NCBI GenBank assembly: GCA_017408635.1
Contig: JAFQUH010000006.1
Location: forward strand, 2,903 to 66,902
Direction: 5' to 3'
Source of the DNA: Ruminiclostridium sp.
GTDB taxonomy: Bacteria; Bacillota; Clostridia; Oscillospirales; Ruminococcaceae
Length of the DNA stretch: 64,000 nucleotides
The notes below the pieces were generated by a model, which searched no databases, was not told the DNA's origin, and saw only the letters and a list, made by a program, of their open reading frames with translations. The stretch's first letter is position 1. The number at the start of each line of letters is the position of its first letter. This document shows, piece after piece, positions 34,741 through 35,126 of this stretch. Both the position numbers and the translations under genes were made by a program.

Positions 34741-35126
34741 GAAAGCAGGGCAAATGCCCTGCTTTCAGCGTGTAGACAAAGTCTTGTCTACACGCTGTCA
34801 GACGATGAAAAACGCACGTCAGCCATTGATTTTGACCTGTTCGGTCAAAATCGTCAACCGCCCCCGTCGGCGTACGAACGGCAAGGATGCCGTAAAGCGA
34901 ACACCAAAAGTGCATCACGATGATGCACAACAAAGTGTTCGCATAAGGTACGTTAGGCGTCAGTTGACGAAGTAAGCAAAAATGCTTTAGGGAAGCCGTT
35001 TTAGGCTTCCCTAAACTTTTGTATTAATGTTTTGTATGCTCGCAAGATAAGTACAGAATTTTACGCATTTTTGCGGTGCGTGAGTTTGTCTTCAGTCTGA
35101 AGCAGGGCAAATGCCCTGCTTTTTTT
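34741..35126 (+). repeat. terminator-associated structured repeat, copy A (core 34766-35098, MITE-like; flanked by duplicated host terminator hairpin)
   Basis: About 90% identical to copy C over ~335 bp and shares both ends with copy B. The hairpin GCAGGGC-aaat-GCCCTGC is present at 34741-34766 and again at 35099-35122 (+T6). The 5' end has a 14-bp hairpin at 34766-34797. An internal hairpin plus T-run lies at 34986-35020. Confidence 0.9.

Follow-up and report, generated by a model that had tools for sequence, protein, structure and literature searches.

A structured MITE family in gut and rumen Clostridia, probably moved by hairpin-targeting IS1182-family transposases, that duplicates its entire target hairpin

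What kind of mobile element settles on the intrinsic-terminator hairpins of bacterial genes and comes to lie between two copies of the entire hairpin? The question is raised by a 64-kb stretch of DNA from Ruminiclostridium sp. (GenBank assembly GCA_017408635.1, contig JAFQUH010000006.1, positions 2,903 to 66,902; hereafter the window), in which three structured repeats, A, B and C, lie beside such hairpins. The original prediction, made from the letters of the window by themselves, took these repeats for a mobile, non-autonomous family and likened the logic of its ends to that of IS200/IS605 elements. Here we conclude, with a probability that we put at roughly 85%, that the repeats are a MITE (miniature inverted-repeat transposable element) belonging to a hairpin-targeting subgroup of the IS1182-family insertion sequences (IS), and that this non-autonomous element duplicates its whole target hairpin. 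Five things were directly observed in support of this: the family itself, inverted repeats that it has in common with IS1182 elements, duplicated hairpins, empty sites, and covariation in the structure. Since the MITE has no transposase gene of its own, we infer that an IS1182-family DDE transposase must act on it in trans.

Reading of the locus and alignment bear out three copies in the same orientation, with slightly corrected boundaries (Table 1): the ends of A and B had each been placed 1 nt short, and copy C, first given as 54676-55010, had been off by 10 nt. The long forms A and C are 97% identical over 258 nt, and B is a short form which lacks two internal modules present in the others. 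Copy A follows an open reading frame (ORF, 33946-34731) with a prepilin-type N-terminal methylation motif (N_methyl); it is flanked by a perfect 23-bp repeat of a whole hairpin, and the remaining T-run stands after the right copy only. Copy B behaves in the same manner at a different hairpin, the two flanks of which are identical at 21 of 24 positions. Both of these duplications had been correctly recognized at the outset. The flanks of copy C are two mutually unrelated hairpins. No IS1182-type transposase is encoded in the window according to tblastn, which agrees with the earlier statement that the window holds no transposase gene. A small coding gene inside the element was considered and rejected, because the ORFs of 73 and 63 amino acids (aa) in A and C are missing from B and no ORF is common to the long and the short forms.

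The family extends well beyond the window. When one genome per species was scanned with the element's left-end palindrome, the result was 68 loci (these, like the contigs from other scans, are cited below by L numbers) which, bar a few chance or distant matches, came from eight metagenome-assembled genomes (MAGs) of gut or rumen Clostridia labelled Ruminiclostridium sp., Oscillospiraceae or Clostridia; a single MAG contributed about 30 of them. From these eight MAG species at least 48 complete copies of the MITE could be extracted, so that chance is excluded and the expectation of further copies elsewhere is answered in the affirmative. The copies form two subfamilies and three size classes: subfamily 1, to which the window copies are similar, has sizes of about 242, 310 and 337 bp, and subfamily 2, with a different right subterminal sequence, measures about 265-280 bp. 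Copy A had no BLASTN match among the plasmids of PLSDB.

The imperfect inverted-repeat ends that had been described are real. The terminal inverted repeats (TIRs), CAGYGTGTAGACAAAGT ... GTTTGTCTTCAGTCTG, are complementary at 15 of 19 positions; in other words, the left end TCAGCGTGTAGACAAAGTC and the reverse-complemented right end TCAGACTGAAGACAAACTC agree at 15/19. The pentamer TTCAG is present, as had been noted, at all three left junctions and near the right end within the window. It is not a conserved motif, however: across the family the base preceding CAG may be A, C, G or T, tracking the target flank, and TTCAG in the window is simply a T from the T-tract of the target followed by the element's own CAG. 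The outermost T and A likewise differ from copy to copy, in step with the flank (ACAG...CTGC in L020, where the flanks have C and A; L026 and L179 behave similarly). The element proper is for this reason most likely CAG...CTG, which makes the duplication 2 nt longer than it would be if the element were read as TCAG...CTGA.

These details bear directly on the kinship that was first proposed, namely that the repeats are non-autonomous IS200/IS605-type elements (palindrome-associated transposable elements, PATEs) which move as single-stranded DNA by means of a Y1 HUH transposase and insert 3' of a TTCAG that is mirrored at the right end. The hairpin-rich ends, the TTCAG at the three left junctions of the window and near the right end, and a whole-element fold that brings the 5' and 3' ends together would all be in its favor. 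But IS200/IS605 elements have neither TIRs nor target duplications, and both are found here, the former matching at 15/19 and the latter 17-34 bp in length; the base before CAG varies with the flank throughout the family; no Y1 or TnpB gene was seen with these ends; and every full-length element that has them encodes an IS1182-family DDE transposase. The TIRs, the target duplications and the transposase partners lead us to rule out this reading as highly improbable.

The autonomous partners emerged from a scan of viral contigs with the generic end TCAGNNTGTNGACAAAGT, which gave mostly chance matches plus a dozen inverted end pairs lying 1.5-1.7 kb apart, each of them enclosing a single ORF of 440-500 aa. 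For two of the ORFs, NCBIfam NF033551 ('IS1182 family transposase', cut-off 270 bits) gives scores of 479 and 454 bits, and Pfam gives matches to DUF772, DDE_Tnp_1_6 and DDE_Tnp_1. Among the full-length elements with these ends, of which there are at least 14, every one has an IS1182-type transposase. A partner gene bounded by the same ends thus exists, as had been hoped, encoding an IS1182-family DDE enzyme and not the Y1 TnpA or TnpB that had been thought of. The IS1182-family ends that match the MITE can be written as CAGNNTGTAGACAAAGT, as the CAGACTGTAGACAAAGT type, or as CAGYGTGTAGACAAAGT...GTCTTCAGTCTG; the MITE retains the family left end CAGYGTGTAGACAAAGT, folded onto its own inverted copy, and the family right end ...GAGTTTGTCTTCAGTCTG. 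Its left inverted repeat is identical at 18/18 positions to that of the IS in L179 (for the right end see Table 1; L245 and L247 have the MITE's exact right end and an IS body truncated by the start of the contig). Polarity is kept too: when the IS is oriented by its transposase gene, MITE left corresponds to IS left and MITE right to IS right. In the autonomous copies a hairpin contains the left inverted repeat and is followed by an inward-facing T-run, with an equivalent at the right end, and the left-end palindrome of the MITE is this left-end hairpin minus its T-run. Perfect duplications of a whole hairpin, 18-34 bp long, flank most of the autonomous copies. Copies of the IS with these ends are borne by phages in L069, L103, L179 and L239, and others, annotated 'IS1182 family transposase' and flanked by whole-hairpin duplications, reside in the finished plasmids of isolates (Enterococcus faecium NZ_LR134109.1, Listeria monocytogenes pLIS32 and Sutcliffiella horikoshii pBH-BAT-167), which shows that the pattern is no artefact of metagenome assembly. 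The original prediction had named a clear match to a described IS or MITE family among the outcomes that would refute it; the match to IS1182 is of this sort, and it makes the feature less novel and leaves its reality unaffected.

One autonomous element of IS1182 type, L158:7040-8616, is inserted in, and has duplicated, a 23-bp palindrome (GCGTGTAGACTTTGTCTACACGC) that is itself a family end-palindrome, and thus the family's own end hairpins can serve as targets.

A second family of insertion sequences had to be weighed, the IS30 family, of which an IS1630-like member could have given rise to the MITE. The element ends contain TGTAGA, which we take to be an IS30 inverted-repeat motif. IS1630 of Mycoplasma fermentans (IS30 family; Calcutt 1999) has, moreover, the same insertion phenotype, in that it duplicates inverted repeats of a variable 16-26 bp, as cited in two later papers (PMC3317919, PMC2853133). 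None of the autonomous elements with these ends carries an IS30-type transposase, however; their products have DUF772 and DDE_Tnp_1_6 and exceed the NF033551 cut-off by far. With full-length relatives that all belong to the IS1182 family, the IS30 derivation was dropped as very unlikely.

The most distinctive property of the MITE is the nature of its target duplication. In the MITE copies in which a duplication could be scored, the flanks are direct repeats of an entire hairpin, 17-33 bp long and different at each locus. Taking 34 MITE and 7 IS duplications together (41 in all, measured at 17-34 bp, to which the termini CAG...CTG would add about 2 nt), 36 are centred exactly on the dyad of the hairpin; among the five that are off-centre, L006 is a scoring artefact and the other four have ambiguous trailing Ts. 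In 34 of the 41, the duplication is bordered by an A at its left and a T at its right; the preferred target is therefore an A-tract, a stem-loop and a T-tract, with joins placed symmetrically at or near the feet of the stem.

That the hairpin is duplicated upon insertion is shown by empty sites, belonging to two IS copies and one MITE copy, which carry a single hairpin. For the IS in L069, contig L197 matches the two flanks at 223/223 and 200/200 positions and has a single 23-bp hairpin between them; for the IS in L116, a single hairpin is found in 39 related contigs; and for the MITE L008:1803-2045, with its 26-bp duplication, the orthologous site in L063, from another MAG species, is about 85% identical across the junction and again has one hairpin. 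For the window copies, the contigs found by identical flanking-gene proteins were all from the same population and all carry the insertions; a metagenome scan returned no match to the predicted empty site of copy A. An empty-site scan for the IS in L177 was likewise negative. Together with the copy number and the IS1182-family ends, the empty sites uphold the view of the repeats as a mobile, structured and non-autonomous family, and with it the earlier claim of a target duplication that takes in the entire hairpin and so depends on the locus for its sequence and length.

From these observations a mechanism can be proposed. The transposase would choose DNA palindromes by their shape and not by their sequence, which in practice would mean the hairpins of intrinsic terminators, frequently bordered by an A-tract and, on the opposite side, a T-tract. 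Both element ends would then be joined symmetrically about the dyad of the hairpin, at the feet of its stem, and repair of the gaps would copy the entire hairpin to both sides, so that the duplication would be as long as the hairpin. The simplest geometry in which the two joining sites stay next to each other at any stem length would be that of a target extruded into a cruciform: a rigid transpososome on B-form DNA could not follow a stagger which varies two-fold with hairpin size, and an extruded cruciform could. This geometry, as we see it, would correspond to pathway b in the model of Wan et al. 2017 (PMC5678879).

Several points weigh against the conclusion that we favor. About 10% of the MITE copies lie between unrelated hairpins (five copies: window copy C, L010, L024, L042 and L060), for which the simple model has no explanation; they need recombination between copies, a replacing mode of insertion like that of IS1272, or assembly chimeras. 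Cruciform targeting is deduced purely from the geometry of the joins. A tblastn search of the window and of 551 kb of sampled host loci detected no IS1182-family transposase, and the nearest autonomous relatives come from phage contigs and other Firmicutes. IS1272 deletes its target hairpin and the MITE duplicates it, so that behaviour differs within the IS1182 family. Finally, the strong covariation in the interior of the element, which is described below, is not required by a plain DDE cut or copy mechanism. It is a general property of MAGs that they often lose IS copies.

Some observations on individual copies belong beside the duplications. A metagenome contig, L189:1955-2290, has the right junction and downstream gene of copy A with another upstream gene, another left hairpin and an interior that is a hybrid. 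It arose either by recombination between copies or by chimeric assembly across the repeat, and since it joins the right junction of copy A to a different left flank, such joins do occur and are one route to copies between unrelated hairpins. In about eight copies the two flanking hairpins have the same stem, with loops that have diverged or carry indels: L057:1634-1655 and 1925-1946 have a common stem and an inverted loop (CCAAGG versus CCTTGG), and the stems are alike and the loops diverged in L004, L030, L031 and L047. Such diverged or inverted loops may be due to the repair of a folded single-stranded gap. In two MAG species, one and the same orthologous hairpin site holds different forms, a long one (L049:2513-2849, 337 bp) and a short one (L063:1812-2054, 243 bp). 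This points either to a deletion or conversion inside the element once it had inserted, or to a hairpin that was used more than once.

Reduced and composite forms of the family were seen as well. Solo palindromes of 33-35 bp (L013:4878-4912, L061:4894-4928 and L008:5570-5603) have the left inverted repeat and its inverted copy only (TCAGCGTGTAGACAAAGTCTTTGTCTACACGCTGA); each lies between two different terminator-like hairpins, the sites in L061 and L008 are orthologous, and they could be minimal two-end elements or remnants. One subfamily-2 copy harbors, at the apex of its arm hairpin, a nested MITE of another kind (L052:3182-3462), which is about 280 bp long and has the inverted repeats GGGAATAAGAG...CTCTTATTCCC. 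In Ureibacillus and Lysinibacillus (L015:5096-5135 and L016:6846-6885), hairpins of the form GTGTAGACAAAGTCGAA(A/T)TTGTCTACAC, each followed by a T-run, resemble the end-palindrome of the family; no full element was found near either locus, and these hairpins may be remnants or chance terminators.

The interior of the MITE is highly structured. Copy A folds with z-scores of -11.7 (plus strand) and -12.9 (minus strand). In a consensus structure built on 29 short copies, 98.9% of the cells are paired, and 110 cells show changes on both sides of a pair as compared with 32.6 +/- 4.7 after shuffling and at most 24 when the partners are slid, counts which overstate the number of independent events, for the copies are related by descent. 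Helix 1 is the left-end palindrome and shows a compensatory change of C-G to U-A. Covarying pairs number five in helix 4, two in helix 5 and five in helix 7, the terminator-like hairpin, and the arm made of helices 4 and 5 exists in three fully compensated forms (CCGCCCC/GGGGCGG, CTGACGC/GCGTCAG and CAGCCAT/ATGGCTG). Subfamily 2 has the same architecture, with a long-range covarying helix whose strands are about 140 nt apart, and there is free variation in the AT-rich spacer that separates the terminator hairpin from the right end. In the predicted fold, the inner left-repeat copy would pair with the right end into a closing helix on which the left-end hairpin stacks, and the 5' and 3' termini thereby abut. 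A 12-13 bp hairpin with a T-run, first noted at 34986-35020, is indeed found in A, B and C, where a scan with a terminator consensus marks it as terminator-like on both strands; the same scan also flags the right copies of the duplicated hairpins. The fold is real, and it can be read as an RNA, as a requirement of a structure-specific transposase, or as the result of upkeep by hairpin-templated repair.

The first two of these readings would make the interior a selected functional module, either a portable bidirectional terminator or insulator with a structured RNA, which would bring termination back at the terminators split by the element, or a fold required by the transposase, and both are compatible with an IS1182-derived MITE. 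The paired cells and double changes, the covarying helices 4, 5 and 7, and the architecture preserved with its covarying long-range helix in a divergent subfamily all speak for selection, especially beside an AT-rich spacer that is free to vary, as does the retention of the terminator-like hairpin on both strands; G-T wobbles also exceed A-C mismatches on the top strand (33 versus 10 cells), a weak excess when it is counted in distinct pairs (17 versus 9). Yet shared descent inflates the cell counts, hairpin-templated repair can keep palindromes complementary without any selection, no convincing promoter was found in the element (a TTGCAA-17-TATAAT at 35138-35166 is outside it and belongs to the downstream gene), the insertions have no orientation bias relative to the flanking genes, and Rfam has no match: none for the whole window at the gathering thresholds of Rfam 15, and in a permissive scan of copy A only weak, terminator-like chance matches, the best with 25 bits against a 70-bit cut-off. 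A selected function for the interior is, on balance, a tentative proposition that we consider rather unlikely. We are similarly doubtful of a more far-reaching combination, in which integration would be guided purely by structure (capture of a cruciform, with dyad-symmetric duplications of any length) and the interior would be a selected self-folding cassette, needed by the transposase or acting as a portable terminator. Such a cassette would be composed of the left-end hairpin stacked on the end-to-end closing helix, the covarying arm and the bidirectional terminator. Were this true, it would as a portable terminator repair the terminators that the element splits, or else it would serve a structure-specific transposase.

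A structured element at terminators also brings to mind RNA-mobilised elements, such as a remnant of a class C group II intron or another terminator-targeting retroelement. Class C group II introns insert directly after terminator hairpins, a habit akin to that of the MITE, which is moreover highly structured. But no reverse transcriptase was found and Rfam contains no group II intron match, the insertions have both orientations relative to the terminated gene, and TIRs with dyad-symmetric target duplications are the signatures of a DDE transposon. An origin of this sort is extremely improbable.

How might an IS1182-derived MITE at such sites affect transcription? After insertion, the gene-proximal copy of the hairpin is left without a T-run, which stays with the distal copy. 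The anatomy makes it plausible that transcripts of the gene upstream of copy A would read through into the element and end near 35015-35020; the terminator-like hairpin and T-run lie about 220-250 nt into the long form and about 130-160 nt into the short one. A second stop is predicted at the distal copy of the hairpin, where the T-run has been kept. Among the insertions, 21 are between convergent genes, 6 are sense and 8 antisense to a co-directional gene, without bias. Given the absence of an orientation bias and a hairpin that is terminator-like on both strands, any effect on termination is not specific to the sense orientation, and the role as a sense 3' untranslated region envisaged in the original prediction is not indicated. 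Nonetheless, these MITEs could reshape the 3' ends of transcripts and the insulation of convergent genes, for they split the stem of a terminator from its T-run and add a bidirectional terminator-like hairpin. They also offer an explanation for 'tandem terminator' artefacts and for repeat-induced contig breaks in MAGs of gut and rumen Clostridia.

Table 1. Features of the three MITE copies and their flanking hairpins, in window coordinates (IRL, left inverted repeat; TSD, target-site duplication)
Feature	Position	Strand	Remarks
MITE copy A, long form	34766-35099	+	334 bp, termini CAG...CTG; aligned with B and C; TIRs match IS1182-family elements; fold z-score -11.7
Copy A, left TSD copy	34743-34765	+	Terminator hairpin of the prepilin-type gene, now severed from its T-run; identical 23-mer AAGCAGGGCAAATGCCCTGCTTT at 35100-35122
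Copy A, left-end palindrome 'P'	34766-34797	+	IRL folded onto its own inverted copy; 14-bp stem, AGTC loop
Copy A, second, inner IRL-like repeat TCAGACGATGAAAAACGCACG	34798-34818	+	Pairs with the right end (helix 2 of the consensus structure)
Copy A, internal 12-bp hairpin with T-runs on both strands	34986-35020	.	Bidirectional terminator-like; helix 7, compensatory changes in five pairs (29 copies)
Copy A, right terminal inverted repeat GTGCGTGAGTTTGTCTTCAGTCTG	35076-35099	+	21/21 against the right end in L245 and L247; 17/18 against L103 and L076
Copy A, right hairpin copy (35100-35122) and retained T-run	35100-35126	+	Intact terminator-like site
Copy B, left duplicated hairpin	53351-53374	+	3' of ABC permease gene 52068-53336 (Pfam BPD_transp_1); 21/24 match to 53617-53640
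MITE copy B, short form	53375-53616	+	242 bp; internal terminator-like hairpin 53502-53531
Copy B, right duplicated hairpin and T-run	53617-53646	+	Hairpin copy 53617-53640
Copy C, left flanking hairpin	54643-54665	+	Terminator of gene 53733-54614; no duplicate on the right
MITE copy C, long form	54666-55000	+	335 bp; internal hairpin 54886-54915
Copy C, right flanking hairpin	55002-55023	.	Unrelated to the left one; 14 nt beyond the stop of the convergent SbcC-like gene (55037-57802, minus)

The neighborhood of the copies offers a few further observations. The gene convergent on copy C encodes an SbcC/Rad50-like ATPase (AAA_23, SbcC_Walker_B). SbcCD enzymes cleave DNA hairpins and cruciforms; the presence of such a gene beside a hairpin-rich element is probably a coincidence. 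The product of the gene between B and C (53733-54614) contains three internal repeats of about 100 aa, with blocks ...FTHEDFMNLE...CAECP...NPK...W..., and its sole Pfam match is a weak one to Fe_dep_repr_C; Tandem Repeats Finder detected none of these repeats at the DNA level. A 58-nt direct repeat beginning TGAGGGGTATGCT... occurs at 24049-24106 and 33748-33805, about 9.7 kb apart and with 72% identity, the second copy lying upstream of the prepilin-type gene cluster; this repeat has no relation to the MITE.

How does this MITE compare with the systems already known? Its closest counterparts are the IS1182-family elements with CAGACTGTAGACAAAGT-type ends, with which it has in common the TIRs and their polarity, the left-end fold-back hairpin, the hairpin target and the dyad-centred duplication of the whole hairpin. 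It differs from them in its want of a transposase gene, in its length (240-340 bp versus 1.5-1.7 kb) and in the loss of the left-end T-run; the extra inner copy of the left repeat and the covarying multi-hairpin interior are, among the autonomous copies examined, peculiar to the MITE. The bacterial MITEs with structured interiors, such as the Correia elements of Neisseria, RUP and ERIC, make short fixed duplications (e.g., TA) at sites defined by sequence. They are similar to the present family in being short, multi-copy, intergenic, non-coding and foldable sequences bounded by inverted repeats which can affect neighboring transcripts, and dissimilar in that the duplication is defined here by structure and varies in length. 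From IS1630, whose insertion phenotype is the same, the present element differs in its transposase family, in its ends and in being a MITE and not an autonomous IS.

Within the IS1182 family, duplications of 0-60 bp are listed in the family table of ISfinder. IS1272 and TnSha1 of staphylococci insert, like the MITE, into terminator hairpins that have no primary-sequence consensus; unlike it, they delete all or part of the target hairpin and make no duplication (Furi 2016, PMC4923244; Wan 2017, PMC5678879). The cruciform model for IS1272 does include, as a hypothetical branch (pathway b), the duplication of a whole stem-loop, and IS1272 variants with a duplicated left inverted repeat (IS1272L) and the three inverted repeats of TnSha1 are a precedent for the extra left-repeat copies of the MITE (PMC5678879). 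ISPse1 makes a duplication of 4 bp (PMC3281130), and hence the family is heterogeneous. Siguier et al. 2015, to go by the passages that cite it, stated that some IS1182 members target palindromes, 'without detailed data' (PMC4923244, PMC5678879). Published work on the IS1182 family thus offers hairpin targeting with deletion, as in IS1272, plus this passing remark on palindromes; to it are added here whole-hairpin duplications seen in filled versus empty sites. The behaviour itself is of a known kind, and what is new is the MITE family together with the explicit evidence from such sites for whole-hairpin duplication in an IS1182 subgroup. Duplications that vary in length and are centred on a dyad point directly, and in a way open to testing, to a DDE transposase whose integration is directed by cruciforms.

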